From: a virus
Virus genome (UHGV): UHGV-0170778
DNA: 64,000 nt
Strand: one strand, 5' to 3'
This document shows positions 5,684-57,395 of this stretch, piece after piece. The notes under the pieces were generated by a model that saw nothing but the letters and a program-made list of their open reading frames with translations, did no database searches and was not told the DNA's origin. How positions within the stretch are numbered: the first letter of the stretch is position 1; each line of letters starts with the position of its first letter. Position numbers and translations under genes: made by a program.

Positions 5684-5716
5684 GCAGCAAGACTTTGATC
5701 TTGCTGCTGTTTCTAT
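5684..5716 (+). terminator. rho-independent terminator (cassette copy 1)
   Basis: 9-bp stem gcagcaaga/tcttgctgc, 6-nt loop, followed by tgtttctatatt. Confidence 0.6.
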
Positions 5717-5746
5717 ATTAAAACATTAAGAAACTATTAAGATCTA

Positions 5747-5775
5747 TTGAAATTAGGTCAATATTTCGTTATAAT
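5747..5775 (+). promoter_or_regulatory. sigma-A-type promoter (cassette copy 1)
   Basis: TTGAAA - 17 bp - TATAAT. Part of a conserved approximately 60-bp element aaaacattaagaaactattaaga...tcaatatttcgttataatat. Confidence 0.6.
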
Positions 5776-5825
5776 ATGTATGTGTAAAGTAGATAAATTG
5801 ATACACACAGGGAGAAAAATACAAA

Positions 5826-6740: not shown

Positions 6741-6773
6741 GCAGCAAGAAATTGATCTTGCTGCTATTTTTAT
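6741..6773 (+). terminator. rho-independent terminator (cassette copy 2)
   Basis: Same 9-bp stem gcagcaaga/tcttgctgc, loop aattga, then tatttttat. Confidence 0.6.
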
Positions 6774-6804
6774 GTCCAAAATATTAAAAAACTATTAAGA
6801 ACAC

Positions 6805-6833
6805 TTGAATTTATATCAATATTTCGTTATAAT
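6805..6833 (+). promoter_or_regulatory. sigma-A-type promoter (cassette copy 2)
   Basis: TTGAAT - 17 bp - TATAAT. Flanks are near-identical to copy 3. Confidence 0.6.
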
Positions 6834-6867
6834 ATATGTGTAATAAAAGATAGCGGAGGTTAATATT

Positions 6868-11438: not shown

Positions 11439-13091
11439 TTATTTTACATATGCATAAACAGCTTGACCACAATCATAAACAGGTAACCATCCGTGATCAA
11501 TCATCAATTCTTCATTTGAGGTTCCTTTTCCGTAATCTGTGTTGAAAAGTTGATCGTATCCTCGTTGACGTAAGAGATTTGCAGTTATTTTATTATTCTC
11601 CAACGACCATATTTCTTGAGGAGGTGTATTCTTAACAAAATGCATACCTAATTTGCTATAAACAGATCCGTCAAATTTAGATAAATCACAATAGGAAATT
11701 ATATTGTTCAGATGATAATGAGAGACGGCGTATTTGAAGAGTTTTGAAGCCCCGCCAGTAATTTTATATCTACTGTTTGAGCAAAGTCGAAGAAGTTCAT
11801 ATTGATAGTTTCTATTATATCTAGAATTACCAAAAGTCATCACTTCAACAAGTTCTCCTTTATACATCAATCCTACTCGAATATTCTGTCCTTTACATGT
11901 ATTCTGGATATGATACTTACATAAGAATTCGTCGCATTCTTTCTTACCTATCTCTACAATTTTGCAGTTACGGGCATATATAACTTCTTTCTTTGTCAAT
12001 AGCTGGATGACTTTGTCCCAGTTATCCCAATCAAAGATATGAATACATCTGAATCCGTTTTCTTTAGCAATATTAGTCTTCTCTAAATGGTAACCTTTAT
12101 CTACAGTAACATTCCAATGGTTTCCAACAATGTTGTGAGTATAAGTAGGATCAATTTCTATTAGAATGTTAGTGTCAAGTATGTGTAAGTCGTAAAATTT
12201 TCCACTTAGATAAAATTCTAACTCTCCGTTTTCATTTGCTGCTTTTACAGCATCTAAAAATTTCAAATTTGTTTTAGATATCCTGTTTTTTCTGCACTGA
12301 GCGTCATTTGTCAAGCAGCCATAAGGAACTCCGTATTTCTTCATACATGTTTCTTGTATTTTCATTTGAATTGTTTCAGATTTTGAAGGGTTATCTACTC
12401 CTAAGTGTTCGATCCAAGTCTGCTTTGCTTTTTCGTCTATTTCGTCAGGCCAAAAAGACCCATAGTTCGCTATTCTATGTTCCATAGCTATTTTATTTAT
12501 TGATTCCACCTGCATTGGATTTTCTTTTCCATATCGTTCCATCATTGTTTGTTTTGCTTTTTCTGTAAATTGATCTATTTTAGATGGATTAGCTTTGCCA
12601 TACTTTGCCTCCATAGTTGCTTTGTATTTATCATATAACTGTTTACTCTGTAAAGTAGTAGGAGCACCGTATCGTTCAGTCATAGTTTTCATTGATTTTT
12701 TCTTTATTTCTGGATCGCTCAATGCCCAGTCAACACCAAATTTCTTCTGGTTAGATGCTTTTGCTTTTTCATAAAATTGATCTGATTGCAAAGCAAATTC
12801 AACACCATACTTATCTTTCATAGATTTTCTGTGATGAGCTTGAACTTCTTTGTTTTGCATAGGATGATCTACACCATATTTTTCTCTACATCTCATCTTT
12901 CGTAATTGAGCTTTACATTCTTTGGAACACGGAGGAGGCTGTTGTCTTGAATTCCATATCATTTGTTTACCACAAACAGGGCAAGGAACATAATGATCGT
13001 CATTACATATTTTAGTAGAACTTCTTTCTGGCATAAATATTTTGCCACATATAACACATTTCTTCGGACTCTTTGGAACACCTTTAGGCAT
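11439..13091 (-). CDS. homing-endonuclease-like protein, paralogue A
   Basis: The only substantial minus-strand gene. Architecture: zinc ribbon (CVICGKIF ... CPVCGK), about 9 tandem approximately 33-aa [KR]YG[VA]xxPxQ repeats, PD-(D/E)xK core (ILIEIDPTYTHN ... YHLEKT ... GFRCIHIFDWDNWD), and a conserved C-terminal domain. Start moved to MPKG. Confidence 0.65.
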   Translation of the reverse strand: MPKGVPKSPKKCVICGKIFMPERSSTKICNDDHYVPCPVCGKQMIWNSRQQPPPCSKECKAQLRKMRCREKYGVDHPMQNKEVQAHHRKSMKDKYGVEFALQSDQFYEKAKASNQKKFGVDWALSDPEIKKKSMKTMTERYGAPTTLQSKQLYDKYKATMEAKYGKANPSKIDQFTEKAKQTMMERYGKENPMQVESINKIAMEHRIANYGSFWPDEIDEKAKQTWIEHLGVDNPSKSETIQMKIQETCMKKYGVPYGCLTNDAQCRKNRISKTNLKFLDAVKAANENGELEFYLSGKFYDLHILDTNILIEIDPTYTHNIVGNHWNVTVDKGYHLEKTNIAKENGFRCIHIFDWDNWDKVIQLLTKKEVIYARNCKIVEIGKKECDEFLCKYHIQNTCKGQNIRVGLMYKGELVEVMTFGNSRYNRNYQYELLRLCSNSRYKITGGASKLFKYAVSHYHLNNIISYCDLSKFDGSVYSKLGMHFVKNTPPQEIWSLENNKITANLLRQRGYDQLFNTDYGKGTSNEELMIDHGWLPVYDCGQAVYAYVK

Positions 13092-13139
13092 ATAATAAAT
13101 CTCACTTTCAATATTATTATTAAATATAAGGTACATATA

Positions 13140-13848: not shown

Positions 13849-15408
13849 ATGATCAAAAAATGTAAGATATGCGGAAAAGAGTTTGAAGCATATGGTACTT
13901 CTGAATATTGCCCAGGCCCTCACTATAAAAAATGTGCTGTTTGTGGTAAAGAGTTTGAATGGGATAGATTGCATCCTAAGAAATGTTGTTCGAGGAAATG
14001 TGCAGCAGCTCTTCGACTTTCTACTATATCATCAGAAACAAGAATATGCGAACTTTGTGGGAAAGAATTTCATCCTAATAATAGTACGCAAAAATACTGT
14101 AAAGATGATCATTACAGACCTTGTCCTGTGTGTGGGAAACCAATTAAAATAACTGAAGACACAAGCATTACTTCTTGTTGTTCTGTTGAATGTAGTAATG
14201 AGCTTAGAAAGAGGACATGTATTGATAAATATGGAGTTCCTATTGTATCTCAGAATGACGAAATACGACAGAAATTGAGTCAAGCTTCAATAGAATCAGA
14301 AAATAAGAGAAAAGAAACATGTATCAAACGATATGGAGTTGAATTCGCTTCTAAATATTCTGAGGTTAGAAGAAAAATATCGAATACAGTTAAAAGCAAA
14401 GAATGTCAAAGTAGAATTAGAAATACGACACAACACAAGTATGGAGTTCCGTTCGTAATGCAATGCGAAGAAGGATTATCTAGATATAGAAAAACAATAG
14501 AATCTAAATATGGAGTTCCATATTTTTGTATGACAGATAAATGCAAAGACTCGCAAGGGAAAGTAATTTCGACTCTAAATAAAAGTTTTGGAAACTTATT
14601 GAGTCAAAATAACATACCATATACATTTGAATACAAGATAGAGAATAGATCGTATGATATTTGCGTCCCTGGATCAAAAACACTGATCGAAATTGATCCT
14701 ACATATACTCATAATGTTATTGGAAATTGTTGGGGACCTGGCTTAGAGATCAATTATCATATAGAGAAGACAAAATTAGCAAATGAATATGGATTCAGGT
14801 GTATTCATATTTGGGATTGGGATGATTGGGATAAGATAATAAATATCATCAGGCCAAAATCCGTCATATATGCTAGAAAATGTAAAATAAGTGTGATTGA
14901 TCGAAAAACAGCAGAATCTTTTGAAATTGATAATCATTTACAAGGCGCTGTAAAAGGACAATCTATTTGCTTAGGTCTATTTTATTGCAATGATCTAGTA
15001 CAGGTCATGACTTTCGGTAAACCTAGGTACAATAAAAACTACGATTGGGAACTGCTTAGACTCTGTTCCATTTCTGATTATGCAGTTGTAGGCGGAGCAG
15101 AGAAGCTATGGAAATATTTCATAAGTAGACATGTATCAGATTCAGTTATTTCTTATTGTGATTTGTCTAAATTCAAAGGAGATGTTTACACGAGATTAGG
15201 TATGTCCTTAGACTTTGTAAACGAACCCAATAAAATATGGTCTAAGAAATCTGAAATGATAACCAATAACTTACTCCTTCAACGAGGGTACGATCAATTA
15301 TTCAATACAAATTATGGAAAGGGGACCTCAAACGAAGAATTGATGCTGGAACACGGATGGTTGCCGGTTTATGATTGTGGTCAAGCAAGATATACATGGA
15401 GTAATTGA
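13849..15408 (+). CDS. homing-endonuclease-like protein, paralogue B
   Basis: Two tandem approximately 60-aa Cys zinc-ribbon modules (CKICGKEF..CAVCGKEF..CCSRKC, CELCGKEF..CPVCGK..CCSVEC), 4 KYGV repeats, LIEIDPTYTHN...YHIEKTKLANEYGFRCIHIWDWDDWD, and C-terminal IYARKCKI...NHLQG...VVGGAEKL. Confidence 0.65.
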   Translation: MIKKCKICGKEFEAYGTSEYCPGPHYKKCAVCGKEFEWDRLHPKKCCSRKCAAALRLSTISSETRICELCGKEFHPNNSTQKYCKDDHYRPCPVCGKPIKITEDTSITSCCSVECSNELRKRTCIDKYGVPIVSQNDEIRQKLSQASIESENKRKETCIKRYGVEFASKYSEVRRKISNTVKSKECQSRIRNTTQHKYGVPFVMQCEEGLSRYRKTIESKYGVPYFCMTDKCKDSQGKVISTLNKSFGNLLSQNNIPYTFEYKIENRSYDICVPGSKTLIEIDPTYTHNVIGNCWGPGLEINYHIEKTKLANEYGFRCIHIWDWDDWDKIINIIRPKSVIYARKCKISVIDRKTAESFEIDNHLQGAVKGQSICLGLFYCNDLVQVMTFGKPRYNKNYDWELLRLCSISDYAVVGGAEKLWKYFISRHVSDSVISYCDLSKFKGDVYTRLGMSLDFVNEPNKIWSKKSEMITNNLLLQRGYDQLFNTNYGKGTSNEELMLEHGWLPVYDCGQARYTWSN

Positions 15409-15942: not shown

Positions 15943-15975
15943 GCAGCAAGATCAAATTCTTGCTGCTATTTTTAT
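15943..15975 (+). terminator. rho-independent terminator (cassette copy 3)
   Basis: Stem gcagcaaga/tcttgctgc, then tatttttat. Confidence 0.6.
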
Positions 15976-16006
15976 GTCCAAAATATTAAAAAACTATTAA
16001 GAACAC

Positions 16007-16035
16007 TTGAATTTATATCAATATTTCGTTATAAT
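16007..16035 (+). promoter_or_regulatory. sigma-A-type promoter (cassette copy 3)
   Basis: TTGAAT - 17 bp - TATAAT. About 90 bp near-identical to copy 2. Confidence 0.6.
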
Positions 16036-16115
16036 ATATGTGTAATAAAAGATAAATAGATGTAATGAGGTGTCACAAAGAACTACAAACCTACCAATAC
16101 AGAAAGGTGTTTATT

Positions 16116-16268: not shown

Positions 16269-17099
16269 TTGAAAGGAGTATTACACATGACTAAAACAGA
16301 ATTGAGAGAGGTACTCGATTTGCATCAGAAATGGCTGAATCTTGAAGACGATGGAGTCAGAGCTAATCTGCATGATTGTGATCTAAGTGGTGCTGACTTG
16401 CAAGGTGTAGATTTAAGTAGGGCTAACCTGCTGAGAGCAAATCTACACGGAGCTGATTTACGAGGAGCATATTTAGGTGGGTGTAACTTGTATGAAGCTG
16501 ATCTCAGTTGCGCAGATATGCAAGGAGCTATCTTTCACAATGCTAACTTTACAGGAGCTAACCTTCGAGAATCAAATCTAAGCGGTTCTGATATGTTTTT
16601 AGCTAACTTGAAGAGAGCAAATTTGCAAAAAGCTAATTTAGTAGAAGCAGACCTATTTCAAGCTAACTTGAAGAGAGCAAATTTGCGTGAATCTGACTTG
16701 CGTGAAGCTAACCTAGTAGGGGCTGACTTACGGGGAGCAGATTTGCGTAGTGCAAGAAATGTACCTTTCATTCCTCTCATTTGTCCGGAAAAGGGTGAAT
16801 TTACTTCTTTCATTAGATGTGGTGACTATATTGTAGAACTTTTGATTCCAGCTGACGCTAAACGGTTTTCTGCAACCACAAGAAGATGCTGGGCAAATTA
16901 TGCTAAAGTTCTGTCAATCACAACATTGTCTGGAGACCCTGTCGAAACGATTAGTGTAACAGATACTGAAGTTTCTCCAAACATTGTATACACAGTCGGA
17001 GAATTTGTATATCCGAATTACTTTAGTGATGACCGGTGGGACGAATATTACGGTGGTATCTATTTTTTCATCAATCGACAAGAAGCTGTAAACCATTGA
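16269..17099 (+). CDS. pentapeptide-repeat protein
   Basis: About 27 consecutive A[DN]LxG-type pentapeptides (ANLHD CDLSG ADLQG VDLSR ANLLR ANLHG ADLRG ...), then an approximately 110-aa non-repeat C-terminus. GAAAGGAG RBS. Confidence 0.75.
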   Translation: MKGVLHMTKTELREVLDLHQKWLNLEDDGVRANLHDCDLSGADLQGVDLSRANLLRANLHGADLRGAYLGGCNLYEADLSCADMQGAIFHNANFTGANLRESNLSGSDMFLANLKRANLQKANLVEADLFQANLKRANLRESDLREANLVGADLRGADLRSARNVPFIPLICPEKGEFTSFIRCGDYIVELLIPADAKRFSATTRRCWANYAKVLSITTLSGDPVETISVTDTEVSPNIVYTVGEFVYPNYFSDDRWDEYYGGIYFFINRQEAVNH

Positions 17100-22160: not shown

Positions 22161-24800
22161 ATGAACTTCAAAACATTTAGTGTAAATACTACTAATATAT
22201 TCCCTATTGCTAACACCACAAAAGGTGGGCAGCTTGTAACAGAATTCAATCTAAAATCAAGAGAAAGTGTTGCAACAGACCCTAATGTGAAATATACATA
22301 CGGTCCGTCATATACACATGGACAAGATGATTTTGCAATAGGGACAGCAACAGACTCTGAAACAGGAGCAAGCATATCTACAACAGTATTACAGATAAGT
22401 CCAGGAAGATGTGTTCTAAATGGACATTTTGTAGAAAACTTAGTCGATATGCAAATTGATATTGTTCAAGCAAACGCGCAAGCAAAGAAATTAGGGCAGT
22501 CACTTATTCAAGGAGTATGCTGCGTAGGGCTTAAAGCAATGTATAGCACAGAAGTAAACATTGCAGGCAGCTTGCAAGCAGAGAACAATGATACAGATTT
22601 ATATGAAGGCGTTCAGGTAGTTATTCTTCCTGTTGCAGAATTCAAACTTCCATCAGATGTACCTGATAACCAAAATGAAGTAACAGCTCATCTTAAACTA
22701 GGTACATTCACATACAACAATGGAATCATAAAATCATCTATATCACAGAACACAGATAAGATAAAAAATATTGACGGTTCTCGCATATACAATATTGATT
22801 CATTGTTATCAAAACAATATATTTCTAAAGCAAACTTAGATCCGCATAAGCTGTATACATTCGCAACAAAGAATGTGGATGATTCAAGTGACTTACAAGA
22901 CACTTGGTGCGATTCTACAGATTCATTGATGGTTTGGGACTCTTCTCCGCAAGAAGAAAAACTAACCAAAACATCTGATAATCCGAAAGAAGCGTCATTT
23001 AAGATTGATAGCTCAACAGAACAGATAAAACTTGTTGTTCCTCATAAACAAATAGACGGTATGAGAAATACACATGGAGAAGCAACATATTATGTTCCCA
23101 AAACATTGAACATACCTGTTGCAGATTATGACAATTCTACTCCGGGTACAGTTAGTTCTTCGTTTATAAAAACAATAAAGAAAATAGAAGATAAAGTTAA
23201 AAATCTATACAGCAATAACAAGGAAAAAGTAACCCAAGGAAATCTAATTGGTGTTATAAATGTATTAGATGCAGATAACTCATTGCCTACAATCAATAAA
23301 TCATGGGCAATTGGTGATTATATCTTAGTAGTACAAGACACATTAGTTGGATCTTCTGCAGATTCAGAAAGAGATCCTTCTACAATGTATATAGTTACAC
23401 CTGGATATGTTAAAACAGTTAAATATATTGCAGATCCTTCTTCATTGTCAGGTATGTGTGTTGGAACAGTTTCAGGTACAGATCCTGGAGAGACAACAAA
23501 CACACCTAGTTACTTCGATTTCAGCATAGAAGAGTACAGAGGTATTCCAAATAAAGATTACTTAGTTTATGTATATGTTAATCCAGAAACCAATGCAAGC
23601 ACTAAGTTTTATTATCAAATTGCAACCTCTTCTGGAAATGATTGGAGCGAGCCTATTATGCTTACTGCTTCAATTCCTTATGCAACAGAAGATCTAGTTG
23701 GTGGATTCAAAAATGTACCGGATGATGCAATAGACGAAGGATATATCAAGATTGACGAAAACGGACATCTAGTTCTAATTGACTACAGTCTACTTCGTTC
23801 TGGTACACTTGCATATCAGCTTGGAGAAGATTACACATCTCCTTCAGGAATTACAAATGAAGCAATACAAGATGAACTAAACGATTATGTAAACGATAGA
23901 GTTGCATTTGCTAACTTAGAACAACGAGCGAAAAAAGGTTCTTCTGCAAATGTAATTGATATTACTTTGAACTTAAGCAAAGAAGAGGAAGAATCAACAA
24001 TAACAATACAGAATATTGATTCTAGATTCAATACTTGTGTTTACCTCCATATAGCAGGAACAGAAGTTGACAGTAATACTATTATAAACATAGTAAATTG
24101 TGAGAAGATAAGAATAGATAGTAACATTGGTGGAGTTAACGGAAACAAGCCTAGAATAAATCTTTATAATTCTTGTTTATACTATGATTCAGGTGTACTT
24201 AGTACATTGAATAGCATTTCAGGATTGAGCTTGTGGTATGAAAAGTATGAAAACACAGATCCTGATATTCTAGTAAACAACATGACTGTACAAGCTGTAA
24301 ATAGTCCTATCATTGCTGAATCAACAGATTTCTGGGCAACAGACACTCCAAATGATAACCATTTTAGATATGCTTTACAAAGTGTAACATATGGAAAAGA
24401 TGGCAACATAATTGGATTTGGTATATACATAAATAACTCAACTACATCGAACATTATGGACGGTAGGTCTATATATGTATCTGATTTTACTATTCCTCAA
24501 GGGTCTGCTCTAACATATCCAGAAAACAGAGTAACTAACAAATTGAAGATATCTGGAGCATTTGTAACATCTTATGCAACAACACTTGAAGACGGAACAA
24601 CAGGATATCAAGTAATTGAAACAATGTTCTCTGCAGTAACTGGTACATATGACGGAGAGTCTATTGAGAAGGGAGTTATTTCGTTCAGCGTAAATGCAAA
24701 TAAAGTGTATGGTACAGTTTATGGTATAACTCCAGGAGATCCAATAGATGCTTGGGACTCTGGTGCATATCATGTATTTACAGGAGGAGCATTGAACTAA
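22161..24800 (+). CDS. large tail/baseplate structural protein
   Basis: 879 aa directly after the tape measure gene, GAGGAG RBS. Ser/Thr/Asn-rich. Confidence 0.5.
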   Translation: MNFKTFSVNTTNIFPIANTTKGGQLVTEFNLKSRESVATDPNVKYTYGPSYTHGQDDFAIGTATDSETGASISTTVLQISPGRCVLNGHFVENLVDMQIDIVQANAQAKKLGQSLIQGVCCVGLKAMYSTEVNIAGSLQAENNDTDLYEGVQVVILPVAEFKLPSDVPDNQNEVTAHLKLGTFTYNNGIIKSSISQNTDKIKNIDGSRIYNIDSLLSKQYISKANLDPHKLYTFATKNVDDSSDLQDTWCDSTDSLMVWDSSPQEEKLTKTSDNPKEASFKIDSSTEQIKLVVPHKQIDGMRNTHGEATYYVPKTLNIPVADYDNSTPGTVSSSFIKTIKKIEDKVKNLYSNNKEKVTQGNLIGVINVLDADNSLPTINKSWAIGDYILVVQDTLVGSSADSERDPSTMYIVTPGYVKTVKYIADPSSLSGMCVGTVSGTDPGETTNTPSYFDFSIEEYRGIPNKDYLVYVYVNPETNASTKFYYQIATSSGNDWSEPIMLTASIPYATEDLVGGFKNVPDDAIDEGYIKIDENGHLVLIDYSLLRSGTLAYQLGEDYTSPSGITNEAIQDELNDYVNDRVAFANLEQRAKKGSSANVIDITLNLSKEEEESTITIQNIDSRFNTCVYLHIAGTEVDSNTIINIVNCEKIRIDSNIGGVNGNKPRINLYNSCLYYDSGVLSTLNSISGLSLWYEKYENTDPDILVNNMTVQAVNSPIIAESTDFWATDTPNDNHFRYALQSVTYGKDGNIIGFGIYINNSTTSNIMDGRSIYVSDFTIPQGSALTYPENRVTNKLKISGAFVTSYATTLEDGTTGYQVIETMFSAVTGTYDGESIEKGVISFSVNANKVYGTVYGITPGDPIDAWDSGAYHVFTGGALN

Positions 24801-24801
24801 G

Positions 24802-25356
24802 ATGTCATTTACAAAAGATTTAGTTAAGATACATCTGATAAATGAAGGTTACTTACCTAACTATCCATACCATCTAATATCAGATGAGGAAATGTGTGAT
24901 GCATTTATACATGAAGATGAAGGGTACTTTTTTGATGAGTACCCTCTTCTCTCTGATAAAGAAGAAACATCTAACGCATATAAAGATTTAGTAAATGTAA
25001 TCAAATATTTCATAGCCGAATTGAAGTTATCAAAACAGGACAGTTATGAACTTCCAGATTGGATATACTCTTATATGTTAGGAAAAGTAATAAGTGTAAA
25101 TTCGGACATACTTGATATACACGATTTGATCTATCCATTAGGTGTAGATAATATAGAGGATATATTTGATGCAAAATGTGAAGATAGATGTTTAGAAATA
25201 AGTAAACTTCAAGTATCTGTTATGGAAACATATAAATTGAAAGACTCTTCTGGAAACTATATCATAGGAGCCAATGGTAATCCATTAACAAATAGACCTC
25301 CTACGATATTTGGAGAACCTCATATAATAAAGTATATAAGAGTAAATATCCTTTAA
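24802..25356 (+). CDS. tail-module protein, hypothetical
   Basis: 184 aa, ATGA-type abutment. Confidence 0.45.
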   Translation: MSFTKDLVKIHLINEGYLPNYPYHLISDEEMCDAFIHEDEGYFFDEYPLLSDKEETSNAYKDLVNVIKYFIAELKLSKQDSYELPDWIYSYMLGKVISVNSDILDIHDLIYPLGVDNIEDIFDAKCEDRCLEISKLQVSVMETYKLKDSSGNYIIGANGNPLTNRPPTIFGEPHIIKYIRVNIL

Positions 25357-36370: not shown

Positions 36371-36610
36371 ATGAACAATACAGGTCAGAAACATAAGAAA
36401 TATGTTTTCAATATTTATCAATATGGTAGATTGATTGATACATTAGTGTTCAATGATTTTGGTGCAGCAAAACAATACTATTATAGAACATGGGCTCATT
36501 ATGATGTAGCTACTGTACCAATAGTAGATGGAAAAGAGCTAACTCTAACAGAAGCTGATAGATTATTTGAATACGCTAGATATTTATGGGAGTATAAAAG
36601 TGTCCAATAG
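36371..36610 (+). CDS. hypothetical protein
   Basis: 79 aa. Confidence 0.4.
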   Translation: MNNTGQKHKKYVFNIYQYGRLIDTLVFNDFGAAKQYYYRTWAHYDVATVPIVDGKELTLTEADRLFEYARYLWEYKSVQ

Positions 36611-37733
36611 TTTAACACCTAACAAAAATTTAGGTATCAAACACAATGTAACATTTAGAGTAATAGATGAACGAACTGGAAATGTTGTTCAAACATATCA
36701 AGGGCATAATTCAGCAACAAACTCATTGTTGTATGGAATAGCTCATTATCTAAAAGGTGATGGAGTTCTTAATCAAGGTGCTCATATGCTAAGTTCATTT
36801 GTTCCTAGATATATAAGTTTAGGCACAATGGGACTTTCTAGTCAAGAAGAAGACGAAAATCATTTGCCTGTAGGTATTGGTGGTACCCCTAATCCAGATG
36901 ACCCAAATGATGAAGAAAACAGATTTGTTAATTACATGTCACATAGACCTGGATACGGTGCTGACGGATATGACATAAATCTAAATAATGGTCGAGATGT
37001 TTTTGGATTAGGTAAACCGTTTTCAAAAACTGATAATGTAATATCTGGTACAACAGAAACATTGAAACTAGGAGATATAAACAACGATGGAGTAGTAGAT
37101 GTGAATGATCTGCTTCTTCTAGTTGATTATATGTGTGATAAAGTAACATTATCTGAAAAACAATTGAAATGTGCAGACATTGATAAGGACGGACATATTG
37201 ATTGTGAAGATGTTCAATTGCTTCGCCAAGCTATTGATAATAAAACAGATCTAGGTACAATTGAATATACAAACACAACTTATCAAACAATAAATTGTGA
37301 GTTGATATCTAATTCATTTCCTCGTCAGCTCATTTCGTATAGAGAAATAATACCAGAAACAAAAGCAGAACAGCCTCAAACAATTGATGTTGTATACAGT
37401 GCAATGATATCAACAGGGGCACTATCACAATTCAGAGATCCTGGTAAAGATTATATATTTATAACAGAAGCAGGTTTATGGTCAAGTGATGAATATACTG
37501 ATGGTGCAGATAACGGACTTTTAGCTGGATATCGGCTTGTTCCTACAAATGATAACTATTGGGATATGACCGAACCGTCAAATAGAATGCAGCTTAAGCG
37601 TTCAATCCTGAGAGTAGGAATAAATCAAGTAGTTCAAGTTATTTGGAAAATACAAATAGGGTCAATTGATGATATACTTGATTACTATCATGTAAATACA
37701 ATATCTGATACAGGAAGTGAAACAGATGTATAA
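36567..37733 (+). CDS. tail fibre/receptor-binding candidate with a dockerin type I module
   Basis: GDINNDGVVDVNDLLLLVDYM ... ADIDKDGHIDCEDVQLLRQAI is the duplicated 22-residue calcium-binding dockerin repeat (DxNxDGxVxxxD + helix), at nt about 37071-37245. The true start may be the GTG at about 36600, which has a GGAG RBS. Confidence 0.6.
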   Translation: MNTLDIYGSIKVSNSLTPNKNLGIKHNVTFRVIDERTGNVVQTYQGHNSATNSLLYGIAHYLKGDGVLNQGAHMLSSFVPRYISLGTMGLSSQEEDENHLPVGIGGTPNPDDPNDEENRFVNYMSHRPGYGADGYDINLNNGRDVFGLGKPFSKTDNVISGTTETLKLGDINNDGVVDVNDLLLLVDYMCDKVTLSEKQLKCADIDKDGHIDCEDVQLLRQAIDNKTDLGTIEYTNTTYQTINCELISNSFPRQLISYREIIPETKAEQPQTIDVVYSAMISTGALSQFRDPGKDYIFITEAGLWSSDEYTDGADNGLLAGYRLVPTNDNYWDMTEPSNRMQLKRSILRVGINQVVQVIWKIQIGSIDDILDYYHVNTISDTGSETDV

Positions 37734-41598: not shown

Positions 41599-41666
41599 TG
41601 TAAATTTCGTTAAATAACCTTTATTAAATCGTTATAATAGTTGTAATGGTAGTAAAGGTGGTTTAT

Positions 41667-43280
41667 ATGACTAAAATATGTGCAGAATGCGGGAAAGAAT
41701 TTGAAGGAAAAGGAAAACAAAAGTATTGTAATAGAAAACACTATAGAAAATGTGTTATATGCGGGCAGAATTTTGAAATTTCGCGAGATCAACTTCAAAA
41801 TGGAGACCAAAGGAGAACCTGTTCTAAAAAATGCACTATAGAGCTTAGAAAACAAACTAATACTAAGAAGTATGGAGGCGTAGCTCCGGCGTGTTCAGAA
41901 TCTGTTAGAGAAAAGATGCAATCTACTACCTTAGAAAGATATGGAGTGAAGCATGCAGCGCAAGCTGATATTTTCAAAGAGAAGTCAAAGCAAACAGCTC
42001 TATCTAAGTATGGTGTTGAATATTATGCAAAAACAGACGAAAGCAAACAAAAACTAACGGAACGATGGAGAGACGAAGAATATAAACGCAAAGTTGTTTC
42101 TAAAATAGCAGCTACAAATCTTGAGAGATATGGGTTTAGAAGTTCTATGCAGTCATTAGATGTTCAATTACGAAATGTAACATCTAAGATGACAGATTCA
42201 TCTAAATATCAAACCTTTCTGAAATTCAAAAAGAATCCAAGAGAAGTTATAGAAAGTTTAGAATTAGACCATAAACCTACTTTATATGAATTAACTTCAT
42301 ATATAGGAGTAAACGAAAGCACTGTCGGTGTATATATACATTTGAATAATTGCGAAGATTTGATTTCCCATAGATCTTCTATTATGGAAACTGATGTTGT
42401 TGCTTTTTTGAAAGAATTAGATCCGGAAATTGTCATATCTAGATGTGATAGAACTATCATTTCTCCATATGAAATAGACATCTACTTACCTGAATACAAA
42501 ATAGGGATAGAATGTAACCCAACAGCTACACATAATGTAGATATAAATGTGTTCGACAATAGTAAACCTACAATGTCCATAAGTTACCATCAAATGAAAA
42601 CTAACATGTGTGAAGATAAGGGTGTACGATTGATTCACATATTTGGATATGAATGGAAATATAAACAAAAAATATTAAAATCTATAATCAGCAATGCTTT
42701 ATGTAAGAACAAAAATAGAATATATGCAAGAAAATGCGAGATACGAAAAGTAGACAGTTATGAATGTTCTAAATTTCTAAATGAAAATCATCGACAAGGG
42801 AAAGTAGGTTCGTCTGTAAGATTAGGGCTGTATTTTGAAAATAAACTAGTTTCTATAATGACATTTGGAAAATTAAGAAAAACTATAGGCTCAAATGGAG
42901 ACGGGTATGAACTGTTAAGATTCTGTTCCACTCTAAATACATGTGTTGTTGGTGGTGCAAGTAAACTGTTTAATTATTTCATAAAAACATACAGTCCAAA
43001 TTATATTAGATCTTTTTCAGATAGAGCACATACAACAGGAAATATTTACAAATTATTAGGTTTTGTAGAAGTTAATAGAAGCACTCCTGGATATTGTTGG
43101 GTGAATATCAATACAGAAAAAGCATATCATAGAATGAATGCACAGAAACATAATATAAAGAAATTTCTAAATGATGATAGCATTGATCTATCTAAGTCAG
43201 AACGAGAAATAATGACAGAACATAGATTCGCTAGAGTATTTGATTCAGGTACAATTACATGGGAATGGCATTCTATATAG
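41667..43280 (+). CDS. homing-endonuclease-like protein, paralogue C
   Basis: CAECGKEF..CVICGQNF..CSKKC zinc ribbon, 4-5 KYGV-type repeats (ERYGVKHAAQ, SKYGVEYYAK, ERYGFRSSMQ), IGIECNPTATHN...YHQMKT...GVRLIHIFGYEW core, and C-terminal IYARKCEIRKVD...NHRQG...VVGGASKLF. Start moved to MTKICAECG, which has an AAAGGTGG RBS. Confidence 0.6.
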   Translation: MTKICAECGKEFEGKGKQKYCNRKHYRKCVICGQNFEISRDQLQNGDQRRTCSKKCTIELRKQTNTKKYGGVAPACSESVREKMQSTTLERYGVKHAAQADIFKEKSKQTALSKYGVEYYAKTDESKQKLTERWRDEEYKRKVVSKIAATNLERYGFRSSMQSLDVQLRNVTSKMTDSSKYQTFLKFKKNPREVIESLELDHKPTLYELTSYIGVNESTVGVYIHLNNCEDLISHRSSIMETDVVAFLKELDPEIVISRCDRTIISPYEIDIYLPEYKIGIECNPTATHNVDINVFDNSKPTMSISYHQMKTNMCEDKGVRLIHIFGYEWKYKQKILKSIISNALCKNKNRIYARKCEIRKVDSYECSKFLNENHRQGKVGSSVRLGLYFENKLVSIMTFGKLRKTIGSNGDGYELLRFCSTLNTCVVGGASKLFNYFIKTYSPNYIRSFSDRAHTTGNIYKLLGFVEVNRSTPGYCWVNINTEKAYHRMNAQKHNIKKFLNDDSIDLSKSEREIMTEHRFARVFDSGTITWEWHSI

Positions 43281-43426
43281 GGAATAGTAATCGTTCAAAA
43301 TATGGTGCAGATTGGTTCACACATACCAATAAATATGTAAAAGTAGAAAAAGAAACTTGTATATACATTCAGAATTCTAATTTTGTTATTTCTATACCCA
43401 AAATATTAAGAAACTATTAAGAAGAC

Positions 43427-43455
43427 TTGAAATTATATCAATATTTCGTTATAAT
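43427..43455 (+). promoter_or_regulatory. sigma-A-type promoter (cassette copy 4, no obvious upstream hairpin)
   Basis: TTGAAA - 17 bp - TATAAT within ccaaaatattaagaaactattaagaagacttgaaattatatcaatatttcgttataatat. Confidence 0.55.
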
Positions 43456-43512
43456 ATAGGTAGTCAGGTAGATAAAAAGTAACAAACTACATGAATTATA
43501 GGAGATTTACAA

Positions 43513-43773
43513 ATGAAAGAAATCAGACTTATTTCTAGTGTTAAAGTTCGGAATGCATGTGTTGAGCATAACTGGTTCACTTGTGGTAGCCAAGAAGAAT
43601 ACGAAATATTCTCAGAACATATCTATAAACTGGACCTTGAAACTAGAAATATAACAACTAATCGACTTGAACACATTGCAAAGAAAATTAAACAATATAG
43701 CGATACAGAGTACGATGTAGCAGCTATTATGTTTGTCTTAGCCAATGATTGTTGTAAGTCTTATTTCAGATAA
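43513..43773 (+). CDS. hypothetical small protein
   Basis: 86 aa, AGGAGAT RBS. Confidence 0.45.
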   Translation: MKEIRLISSVKVRNACVEHNWFTCGSQEEYEIFSEHIYKLDLETRNITTNRLEHIAKKIKQYSDTEYDVAAIMFVLANDCCKSYFR

Positions 43774-43836
43774 GCACAAGTACATCTTCTGCTATATATT
43801 GACACAGTTATTCAATTTTCAAGAAAGGTTACACAT

Positions 43837-44427
43837 ATGAATGTAATACTTAACAACATGATGAAGGTAGAACTTAATATACCTAGAGATCATCTGAATG
43901 CTAAAAATACAATACATGAATTGTTAGCCAACTATACTGAATTCCATTGCGATGAATCTGTAGAAACTGCAAGTCTCAGTAAAGTGTATTTTCAATCATG
44001 TCCGGAGTGTTCTAAACGATATATTCGTTCTGCTGTTTTAGAGCCTATTAACATTGGTGGAACATCATGGTATATGTATGTAAGTATAGAAGAGGAAACT
44101 AAATACAAAGATTTTGATTTTGAATACTTTTCATTGAAGGATATTATTTCCTCTGCAAATAATTCTAAGCTGCCTCTTAGACTGATAGGCTATAATTTGC
44201 AAGGTATGGACTTTGAAGGTATGGATTTGTCTTGTTGGGCACTTATCGGATGTAATTTGAAGAATGCTAAATTCAACAACTGTAATTTACAAGATGTAGT
44301 GTTTACTGGCTGTGATATGACTCGTACAGATATGTATGGAGCTAATACAGAAACTATTAAAGTAAACATGTGCAATTTAGACGAACTAATTCACGACCAC
44401 AATTTAGAAATAAAACAAACGATCTAA
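43837..44427 (+). CDS. pentapeptide-repeat-containing protein
   Basis: The C-terminal half carries about 11 pentapeptides: LIGYN LQGMD FEGMD LSCWA LIGCN LKNAK FNNCN LQDVV FTGCD MTRTD MYGAN. Confidence 0.55.
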   Translation: MNVILNNMMKVELNIPRDHLNAKNTIHELLANYTEFHCDESVETASLSKVYFQSCPECSKRYIRSAVLEPINIGGTSWYMYVSIEEETKYKDFDFEYFSLKDIISSANNSKLPLRLIGYNLQGMDFEGMDLSCWALIGCNLKNAKFNNCNLQDVVFTGCDMTRTDMYGANTETIKVNMCNLDELIHDHNLEIKQTI

Positions 44428-44463
44428 TATTTTTATTTCGTTATTTATATCAGGAGGGATGTT

Positions 44464-44688
44464 ATGAAAACAGAAAATGTAAATCATCCAAGTCACTATA
44501 CACAAGGAAATATAGAGGTAATTGATATCATTCAGTCAGTTACTAAAGACTTGAAAGGTGAACAAGCATTCTGTATTGGAAATGCAATCAAGTACATTGC
44601 TAGATTCAATTACAAAAATGGTGCAGAAGATCTAAAGAAAGCTATTTGGTACATTGAACGAACGATTAAAACTTTGAAGGAGGACTAA
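44464..44688 (+). CDS. DUF3310-like phage protein
   Basis: N-terminal VNHPSHYTQGNIEVIDII resembles the NHPxHY...IExID signature of the phage DUF3310 family. Confidence 0.45.
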   Translation: MKTENVNHPSHYTQGNIEVIDIIQSVTKDLKGEQAFCIGNAIKYIARFNYKNGAEDLKKAIWYIERTIKTLKED

Positions 44689-44689
44689 T

Positions 44690-45076
44690 ATGTCAAAATC
44701 ATTTTATACTCAAGAACAGATAAATCAAGTTATTGAACTCTACAAAGATAGGACTAAATCAATTAAAGAAATTGCAGATATTGCAAATGTATGTGCATCT
44801 TCTGTTAGCAGAATAGCTGCTGAAGCTGGACTTCCTCTTCGGCATCCTAAGAATGCTAAAGTAGTATGTCAGAAATGTGGGCATGTTTGTGAAAATGAAG
44901 CGAAGTTTTGTTCTATGTGTGGTGCTGAGATTTTAAGTCCAAAGAGAAGTGCGATAAAAGCATCCAAATCACTATATCGCCTTGTGCCTTCTATGCCTAG
45001 CTCTATACGAGAAAAAGTAGATGAATACATTAAAATCATTGATCATTACATTGCAAACTCAAAGGAGGCGAAATAA
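44690..45076 (+). CDS. putative DNA-binding regulator (HTH + zinc ribbon)
   Basis: IKEIADIANVCASSVSRIA is helix-turn-helix-like, followed by CQKCGHVC...CSMCGAEI. Confidence 0.4.
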   Translation: MSKSFYTQEQINQVIELYKDRTKSIKEIADIANVCASSVSRIAAEAGLPLRHPKNAKVVCQKCGHVCENEAKFCSMCGAEILSPKRSAIKASKSLYRLVPSMPSSIREKVDEYIKIIDHYIANSKEAK

Positions 45077-45078
45077 GA

Positions 45079-45282
45079 GTGATTTGTCCTAAATGTGGTA
45101 GCGAAGATATTTGCGTAATTGATACAAGATCTTATGAAGGATCTGTATTCAGAAAGAGAAAATGTAAAACATGTAAAGCTAAATTCTGCACAGAAGAGTA
45201 TGTTATGTGTGATAACACAGAATACAATGCTGCATGTGTTGCATTGAAACATGCTCGGGAAGATAAAAAGAAAGACATTTAG
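45079..45282 (+). CDS. NrdR-like zinc-ribbon mini-protein (no ATP cone)
   Basis: MICPKCGSEDICVIDTRSYEGSVFRKRKCKTCKAKFCTEEY aligns with the NrdR N-terminus (MxCPFC...VIDSR..EG.SxRRRRxCxxCxxRFTTxE). The protein ends after 67 aa, where the ATP cone would begin. Confidence 0.5.
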   Translation: MICPKCGSEDICVIDTRSYEGSVFRKRKCKTCKAKFCTEEYVMCDNTEYNAACVALKHAREDKKKDI

Positions 45283-45285
45283 AGA

Positions 45286-45537
45286 ATGTATTATGTAATT
45301 CATGTTGAATTAACCAAGAAAGGCATTTCTAATAAATCTGAATGGGTGATAGACGAATTCTTTTCTGAGGAAGACTTACTAACTTACATTCGTAATCATC
45401 TAAATGCTTGGAAATACAAATTCAGACGCCTTAAACTATTTATGTATGAAAATGCAAAACTTGTAGGTTCGTATGAATATAAATATCTACTTGACAATCT
45501 ACTTCAAGATGTAAAAGAAGATATTGAATATAGGTAA
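45286..45537 (+). CDS. hypothetical small protein
   Basis: 83 aa. Confidence 0.4.
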   Translation: MYYVIHVELTKKGISNKSEWVIDEFFSEEDLLTYIRNHLNAWKYKFRRLKLFMYENAKLVGSYEYKYLLDNLLQDVKEDIEYR

Positions 45538-57309: not shown

Positions 57310-57340
57310 ACTAAAAATATTAAGAAACTATTAAGAAGAC

Positions 57341-57369
57341 TTGAAATTATATCAATATTTCGTTATAAT
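57341..57369 (+). promoter_or_regulatory. sigma-A-type promoter (cassette copy 5)
   Basis: TTGAAA - 17 bp - TATAAT within ctaaaaatattaagaaactattaagaagacttgaaattatatcaatatttcgttataatatatg. Confidence 0.55.
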
Positions 57370-57395
57370 ATATGTAAATAAAGGAGGAATAATAA

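Follow-up and report, generated by a model that had tools for sequence, protein, structure and literature searches.

A phage-encoded, stand-alone NrdR-type zinc ribbon without an ATP-cone, and its possible interference with host NrdR control

In most bacteria, ribonucleotide reductases of every class are under the control of NrdR, which is being investigated as an antibacterial target. In a 64,000-nt stretch of phage DNA (UHGV-0170778; the whole stretch is referred to here as the window), an earlier note had pointed to a 67-residue product that resembles the N-terminal zinc ribbon of NrdR and ends without the nucleotide-sensing cone, and had proposed that such a fragment could deregulate host dNTP synthesis. 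The locus raises two questions, namely whether this small protein is indeed an NrdR-type ribbon, and what a ribbon that has no sensor might do for a phage. The translation quoted in that note corresponds to the plus-strand ORF at exactly 45079–45282; the coordinates of this gene and of the features around it are collected in Table 1.

The 67-aa protein is an NrdR-type zinc ribbon without an ATP-cone, and its similarity to NrdR is far beyond chance. Its ribbon contains two CxxC motifs (C3/C6 and C29/C32), the D15/R17 pair, a basic run (R25-K26-R27-K28), and the signature F36-x-T38-x-E40. The protein matches Pfam family PF22811 (Zn_ribbon_NrdR) with an E-value of 2.8e-10 and 40.4 bits against a gathering score of 27.2, and the alignment places model positions 1–42 of 42 on residues 1–40. 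A sequence search of the PDB with the 67-aa protein returned NrdR as each of its best five matches, and a profile built from 77 stand-alone relatives matched NrdR in the PDB with an E-value of 2e-11, the next match following at 4e-3. The similarity also held in profile–profile comparison, on which the earlier note had made its claim depend: hhalign of the family profile against 20 canonical NrdRs gave a probability of 99.5% and an E-value of 3.7e-22, pairing columns 1–45 with positions 1–47 (of 155) of NrdR and ending exactly at the border between ribbon and cone. Other ribbon families were all below threshold for this protein, with 10.9 bits against 28.6 for Lar, 14.4 against 21 for TFIIS, 14.9 against 29 for TFIIB, and 14.2 against 39.6 for TIGR03655.

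Structure prediction gave the same picture. The AlphaFold2 model of the 67-aa protein has a pLDDT of 90.1 overall and 96 over residues 1–40, with predicted strands at residues 11–19, 22–29, and 35–41 followed by a predicted C-terminal helix. When this model was compared with the PDB by Foldseek, the 13 best matches were all NrdR, with rmsd values of 0.6–1.4 Å and ~40% identity. The protein thus shares the C4 ribbon of NrdR (TIGR00244, K07738; PDB 7P37 and 7P3F from Streptomyces coelicolor, and 9FXK, 9FVR, and 9GEX from Escherichia coli), including the two CxxC motifs, the three-stranded sheet, the sequence V13-x-D15-[ST]-R17, the basic run before the second CxxC, and F-x-T-x-E. Measured against the E. 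coli ribbon, identity is ~40% and rmsd ~1 Å, and both the interface triad and the D/R pair are kept.

The likeness ends with the ribbon. No match to the ATP-cone family PF03477 was found in the 67-aa ORF or in the next ORF, and the NrdR equivalog TIGR00244 of NCBIfam aligns only over positions 1–44 of 147, with 26.5 bits against a cutoff of 124.65. By score, by length (140–220 aa in NrdR), and by the absence of an ATP-cone, the protein thus falls outside NrdR proper as defined by TIGR00244 and K07738. The earlier note had described it as stopping where the cone would start; the lack of a cone is borne out, whereas the simple stop is not, since the chain runs on into the predicted helix and a basic tail that have no NrdR counterpart. 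Both the hhalign and the Foldseek alignments end at about residue 45, leaving the helix without NrdR or ATP-cone homology, and this C-terminal region is variable across the family, with a Lys/Arg-rich end being common. Unlike NrdR, the phage ribbon would therefore operate without nucleotide sensing and without the cone-mediated tetramer; it is also phage-encoded and differs in a hairpin loop that is two residues shorter, in F24 and C12, and in having its own C-terminal helix.

The reading frame itself is well supported. The GTG start lies 2 nt past the TAA stop of the preceding ORF, downstream of a ribosome-binding site with a GGAGG core at 45064–45068, and the choice of this start is supported because the M-x-C-P-x-C N-terminus that it produces coincides with the start of most relatives. 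The protein occurs in identical form, or with a single substitution (99% identity), on at least nine contigs from independent metagenomes, two of which are 118–121 kb long. Two variants with 88% identity are likewise 67 aa long, and their substitutions are confined to positions that vary across the family. Judged by these patterns of conservation, 45079–45282 is a real gene under selection. Besides the zinc ligands, the protein contains four further cysteines, C12, C37, C44, and C53, of which the 88%-identical variants retain the last three but not C12; they might conceivably serve a second metal site or a redox role.

Table 1 Features of the ribbon locus and of the phage around it. Positions are those of the window unless a contig is named.
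Feature	Position	Strand	Description
Stand-alone NrdR-type zinc ribbon gene (cassette gene 5)	45079..45282	+	67-aa ORF, 67 codons, GTG start, TAG stop
Ribosome-binding site	45062..45068	+	AAGGAGG, 10 nt 5' of GTG; read from sequence
Zinc-ribbon domain, residues 1–45	45079..45213	+	Pfam PF22811, hhalign, AlphaFold2, Foldseek
C-terminal helix, residues 47–66 (predicted), KKK-rich tail	45217..45276	+	AlphaFold2, pLDDT 77–87
Six-gene tightly packed cassette	43513..45537	+	Same gene order in L001–L006
Cassette gene 1	first gene from 43513	+	86-aa ORF
Cassette gene 2	43837..44427	+	Pentapeptide-repeat protein
Cassette gene 3	44464..44688	+	DUF3310, 77 bits
Cassette gene 4	44690..45076	+	128-aa protein; zinc-ribbon match at threshold, sub-threshold HTH matches
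Cassette gene 6	45286..45537	+	83-aa ORF
Promoter cassette before the six-gene cassette	43401..43455	+	Upstream element AAATATTAAGAAACTATTAAGAA, -35, 17-nt spacer, -10
-35 element of this promoter	43427..43432	+	TTGAAA
-10 element of this promoter	43450..43455	+	TATAAT
Five near-identical ~75-bp promoter cassettes	5721..5795, 6779..6853, 15981..16055, 43401..43475, 57315..57389	+	
Terminator hairpin, three copies	5685..5712, 6742..6769, 15944..15971	+	GCAGCAAGA-N6-TCTTGCTGC, then T-run
Second pentapeptide-repeat protein	16269..17099	+	Also carries DUF5758
DUF7487 protein	11439..13136	-	
DUF7487 protein	13849..15408	+	
DUF7487 protein, adjoining the capsid gene	41646..43280	+	Near-threshold Mom-family match, 26.6 bits vs 27.1
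Type I dockerin protein	36567..37733	+	40 bits
GTP cyclohydrolase I gene	L013:1..504		Related contig, ~9.5 kb upstream of the window start

To relate the ribbon to the characterised proteins, residues were mapped onto E. coli and S. coelicolor NrdR by adding 2 after the shorter hairpin loop. The alignment is thus not strictly residue-for-residue, as the earlier note had put it, although the ribbon similarity that it described stands. In S. coelicolor NrdR, D15 and R17 recognise conserved G·C base pairs in the NrdR box, and R17A abolishes DNA binding while D15A loosens specificity (PMC9110341). Both residues are unchanged in the 67-aa ribbon. Among 134 short relatives, D15 is kept in 92 (69%), with Glu or Asn in 30 more (22%), and R17 is kept in 105 (78%); NrdR-length proteins of the same match set retain the two residues at similar rates. 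The rest of the DNA face is less uniform. The phosphate-contacting RRRR motif (residues 26–29) of NrdR corresponds here to F24-R25-K26-R27, in which three of the four residues are basic and the first is aromatic; moreover, NrdR R37 is replaced by K35, and R12 (K12 in E. coli) by C12.

The residues of the ribbon–ribbon interface are kept more strictly. In E. coli NrdR, R27, R29, and E42 form salt bridges between ribbons arranged head to head, and the E42A variant is monomeric and has lost repression of PnrdA (bioRxiv 10.1101/2025.03.28.645925). The equivalents R25, R27, and E40 are all present in the phage protein. Across the 134 short stand-alone relatives R25 and E40 are invariant (134/134 each, 100%) and R27 is found in 127 (95%), so that these three, together with T38, are the most conserved non-cysteine residues. 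What is conserved here is the set of residues, from which dimerisation of the phage ribbon is predicted.

Two further features separate the short proteins from NrdR as a group. The spacing between the two CxxC motifs is mostly 22 residues in the short forms and mostly 24 in NrdR-length proteins, and an aromatic residue occupies position 24 in 104 of 184 short forms (57%), where 40 of 45 NrdR-length proteins (89%) have Arg. Because of these differences in loop spacing and at position 24, the stand-alone proteins resemble an old subfamily in its own right more than host genes that were truncated recently. The differences of the stand-alone family on the DNA face (the shorter loop, the aromatic residue at position 24, and Cys in place of R12) suggest a separate lineage of some age that may have targets of its own, a point that weighs against an action on host NrdR.

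The extent of this subfamily was assessed by an exhaustive phmmer search over 1.84 billion cluster representatives, which recovered at least 266 clusters (50% identity) at E ≤ 1e-3. The great majority of these are 50–105 aa long, and almost all are phage-borne. A few members carry two tandem ribbons, with or without an ATP-cone behind them: P0004, P0010, and P0139 are two-ribbon proteins of 123–125 aa, and in P0018, P0037, and P0057 (177–209 aa) two ribbons are followed by ATP-cone-like sequence. The tandem proteins would in effect be natural single-chain ribbon dimers, an arrangement consistent with ribbons that work as dimers.

The family is already visible in databases. Many viral UniProt entries of 50–105 aa (BFVD) bear the name 'Transcriptional repressor NrdR-like N-terminal domain-containing protein', some members are called "transcriptional regulator NrdR family protein" by JGI, and the nearest PHROGs families are listed as function unknown. 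Our literature search turned up no description and no functional study of stand-alone or phage NrdR ribbons. The gene studied here is thus one more member of a large, database-flagged, and functionally uncharacterised phage family. Among the named relatives with the PF22811 domain are UniProt A0A8S5VH50 (64 aa) and A0A6J5KH30 (59 aa) and ORF6 of Bacillus phage 1 (YP_010579113.1, 60 aa). Like these proteins, the 67-aa ribbon is of phage origin, falls within 50–105 aa, consists of a ribbon with a short variable tail, and carries the signature residues; its identity to members outside its own phage lineage is 33–55%.

Ten independent genomic contexts were examined, all of them phage. The ribbon gene is usually found where the replication module ends, with other small genes around it; unlike relatives in that position in siphophages, the present gene belongs to a cassette within the structural-gene region. 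In three loci (L007, L021, and Bacillus phage 1, with ORF6 and ORF7) a gene for a MazG-like NTP pyrophosphohydrolase adjoins the ribbon gene or lies one gene off; a dUTPase gene is found near it in L020, and ThyX, PhoH, and DUF3310 genes are found near it in L009. Such recurrent adjacency to nucleotide-pool genes would fit an action on host dNTP supply, but it may simply reflect a shared spot at the close of the replication module. The loci span 32–64% GC, which implies that the hosts are diverse. In Synechococcus phage S-CRES1 (L027, OQ587939.1), an unannotated ORF for a 68-aa ribbon lies at 24616–24822 in an annotation gap, ~4 kb from the genes for ribonucleotide reductase and dUTPase; the complete genome also encodes ThyX, thioredoxin, and glutaredoxin.

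The phage of the window is a common gut phage and has a genome of ~119 kb with 33–34% GC and a set of structural genes that includes a T4-type major capsid protein, a prohead protease, a portal protein, and a gp13-like neck protein. Megablast against INPHARED found no close relative of this phage, and a search of IMG/VR with its flanking SMC-like protein yielded no relative. The six-gene cassette with the ribbon is an insertion flanked on one side by a homing-endonuclease-like gene, which comes after the major capsid gene, and on the other by the gp13-like neck gene. The neighbours named in the earlier note, an HTH/zinc-ribbon regulator and a DUF3310 protein, were recovered as cassette genes 4 and 3, the former with its zinc-ribbon match at threshold and its HTH matches below it. 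A PADLOC search for known anti-phage defence components matched none of the six cassette proteins at E ≤ 0.01.

Several other genes of this phage deserve mention. Pentapeptide-repeat proteins can mimic DNA, and the two encoded here, one in the cassette and the other elsewhere in the window with its own copy of the shared promoter upstream, may be takeover or anti-defence factors. The three DUF7487 proteins are paralogous, and PHROGs lists this group as homing/HNH endonucleases; the copy at the left is the only large minus-strand gene. The GTP cyclohydrolase I gene, upstream of the terminase and portal genes, raises the possibility of a 7-deazaguanine-type DNA modification in the phage. The type I dockerin protein suggests, from its domain assignment, attachment to a cohesin-displaying Bacillota host surface. 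Relatives of this protein are found on MAG contigs of 9–149 kb that have been binned, discordantly, as Muribaculaceae, Ruminococcus, Clostridium, and Bacteroides; among them are contigs of 63–148 kb in bins of the first three groups. Most likely these contigs are phage DNA placed in the wrong bins.

Ahead of the cassette lies a consensus promoter that scored 11/12 in our promoter scan and belongs to a set of five in the window, where none was expected. Each of the five contains AAATATTAARAAACTATTAAGAA, that is, two TATTAAGAA direct repeats 11 bp apart, followed by TTGAAA and TATAAT. The 17-nt spacer is invariant, and the invariance extends well past the two hexamers. A 21-nt imperfect dyad is made up of the upstream element together with the -35/spacer region. 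Directly 5' of three of these cassettes lies a copy of the same terminator hairpin, yielding a repeated terminator–promoter module. The five cassettes could be early promoters of one class that is regulated through an operator. From the promoter sequence we infer that the ribbon depends on host polymerase and is probably co-expressed early with other likely takeover genes.

Where the ribbon might act on DNA was addressed by searching for the 16-bp NrdR box, ACACWATATATWGTGT, which NrdR binds in pairs upstream of nrd operons. No box with two or fewer mismatches was present in the window. At three mismatches there were 7 matches against 3.3 expected, none of them correctly paired and none in a promoter. 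The ribbon-carrying loci of nine other phages, among them a 50-kb part of S-CRES1 in which its reductase gene lies, likewise contained no box at two or fewer mismatches, and the flanks of the present phage (L013) yielded a single two-mismatch match, located inside a coding region and outside the window. As a control, the same scan of the 701 bp upstream of E. coli nrdA detected one box at two mismatches; a stricter scan for box pairs was disregarded, as it missed this nrdA control, in which one box of the pair is degenerate. The lack of good boxes in ribbon-carrying phage loci implies that, if the specificity of NrdR has been kept, the targets lie in the host and not in phage DNA. The 4.3 kb of intergenic DNA in the window also contained no recurrent palindromic operator apart from the three terminator hairpins.

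Several explanations of the ribbon gene have to be weighed against interference with host NrdR. It might be a decaying or split captured nrdR whose cone has been truncated, lies in the next ORF, or is reached by read-through of the TAG codon. The 83-aa ORF does follow in the same frame, behind TAG and one codon, and a fusion across TAG would produce ~152 aa, near the length of NrdR. Yet this ORF has no Pfam match and an hhalign probability of only 0.1% against NrdR, for which reason a split NrdR was rejected. Read-through was rejected as well, because in-frame neighbouring ORFs are common in the window with all three stop codons and the long ORFs of the window are intact under the standard code. 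Since, moreover, the 67-aa length persists in the 88%-identical variants and hundreds of independent stand-alone relatives are 50–100 aa long, we regard a gene remnant as scarcely credible. The ribbon might instead bind protein and have no sequence-specific role on DNA, docking for example on RNA polymerase, replication proteins, or a host factor. Zinc ribbons often mediate protein contacts, the sub-threshold matches to TFIIS, TFIIB, and Lar-type ribbons could be taken as a hint in this direction, and the top-conserved residues R25, R27, and E40 are protein-interface residues in NrdR. NrdR itself may have protein partners, as an integrative model of an NrdR–Soj complex is found in the PDB (9a6n). 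However, the matches to other ribbon families are far weaker (E 0.0012 or weaker, versus 2.8e-10), and if DNA is not bound, it is hard to see why D15, R17, the basic run, and K/R35, which contact DNA in NrdR (PMC9110341), should have been conserved; a purely protein-binding role is in our view improbable.

A further candidate is a transcription regulator internal to the phage, of ancient lineage, that acts on the phage's own operators, for example in early or middle timing, and has no link to nrd. Small DNA-binding proteins encoded in early or replication regions are usually regulators, and the ten contexts examined fit this pattern. The traits specific to the subfamily, that is, the shorter loop, the aromatic residue at position 24, and the separate C-terminal helix with its basic tail, also agree with such a function, and the 21-nt dyad of the five invariant promoter cassettes could be the operator for a cassette-encoded regulator. 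This dyad is unlike the NrdR box, however, and could equally well be bound by the neighbouring 128-aa protein. The results of the operator and box searches described above speak against a phage-internal regulator too, both in the intergenic DNA of the window and in every ribbon-carrying phage locus scanned. Moreover, the base-reading residues are kept in phages that range from 32% to 64% GC, which would be unusual for a protein with phage-specific operators. On balance, a regulator of this kind is possible and, we think, doubtful.

The explanation that we prefer, tentatively, is that the ribbon interferes with host NrdR control in a manner that favours derepression. We propose that it would be made early by the host RNA polymerase from the consensus σA-type promoter and would pair head to head via R25/R27 and E40, the partner being either a second copy or the ribbon of host NrdR. 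D15 and R17 would mediate contact with NrdR-box-like DNA. Because the ribbon can neither sense ATP/dATP nor assemble, by way of a cone, into the tetramer that spans two boxes, host nrd promoters would be uncoupled from nucleotide control. In the outcome that we favour, repressive NrdR tetramers would be disrupted and host ribonucleotide reductase would rise to serve phage DNA synthesis; an alternative outcome of the same mechanism would be constitutive occupancy of the boxes and hence repression. Derepression is favoured because no phage reductase was seen, there being no ribonucleotide reductase gene in the window and 10 kb on each side (~83 kb of the ~119-kb phage). NrdR boxes overlap promoters, so that simple occupancy would repress the host reductase with no obvious benefit to the phage, a point that counts against the proposal.

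The architecture of the repressor bears on this mechanism in both directions. The NrdR tetramer relies on contacts between pairs of ribbons (PMC9110341), and high-affinity binding needs the tetramer and two boxes, mutation of either box drastically lowering affinity (PMC12051234). Given that the tetramers need these contacts and that two boxes are required for repression, free ribbons in excess could break up the repressive assembly. The same requirement implies that a lone ribbon dimer may bind weakly, which weighs against an action on host NrdR. Deregulation of host dNTP synthesis by the ribbon, as the earlier note had suggested, would be plausible in either direction, and the residue comparisons lend indirect support to the idea that the ribbon could bind NrdR boxes or pair with host NrdR.

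Phages are known to touch the NrdR system. Orf6 of pneumococcal phage Cp-1 binds host NrdR in a yeast two-hybrid assay (PMC4840434), the NrdR regulon is switched on in the course of SpSL1 infection (PMC6755750), and nrdR homologues (K07738) are enriched in gut phages of spore-formers (PMC10294663). Cp-1 orf6 resembles the ribbon in being a small protein of a phage with the NrdR system as its target, which for the ribbon is a proposal; it differs in being reported solely as a protein–protein interaction (PMC4840434). A conceptual parallel is provided by the truncated Spo0A of gut phages, which keeps the DNA-binding effector domain and has lost the receiver domain (PMC10294663). In both cases a host master regulator would have been cut down to its DNA-binding module and freed from its input signal. 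The fold and regulon of Spo0A are unrelated, and that case is likewise bioinformatic only. A more general form of our proposal, in which cone-less ribbons are a widespread phage 'sensor-less decoy' that breaks the tetramer and turns on host reductases regardless of the dATP/ATP ratio, we consider unlikely as a rule for the family; such decoys would act either by Arg/Arg/Glu pairing with host NrdR ribbons or by competition for single NrdR boxes.

The main value of these findings is a family-wide hypothesis that is cheap to test, the family itself being already catalogued in databases. Because the family is large (at least 266 clusters at 50% identity), one biochemical result would annotate many phage genes that now have no function. 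If the proposed interference is true, the naked NrdR head deployed by phages would amount to a minimal form of repressor inhibitor or mimic that occurs in nature, and would offer a scaffold of 60–70 residues for probing the ribbon–ribbon interface recently shown to be essential for repression. It would also show how viruses secure dNTPs without a reductase of their own.
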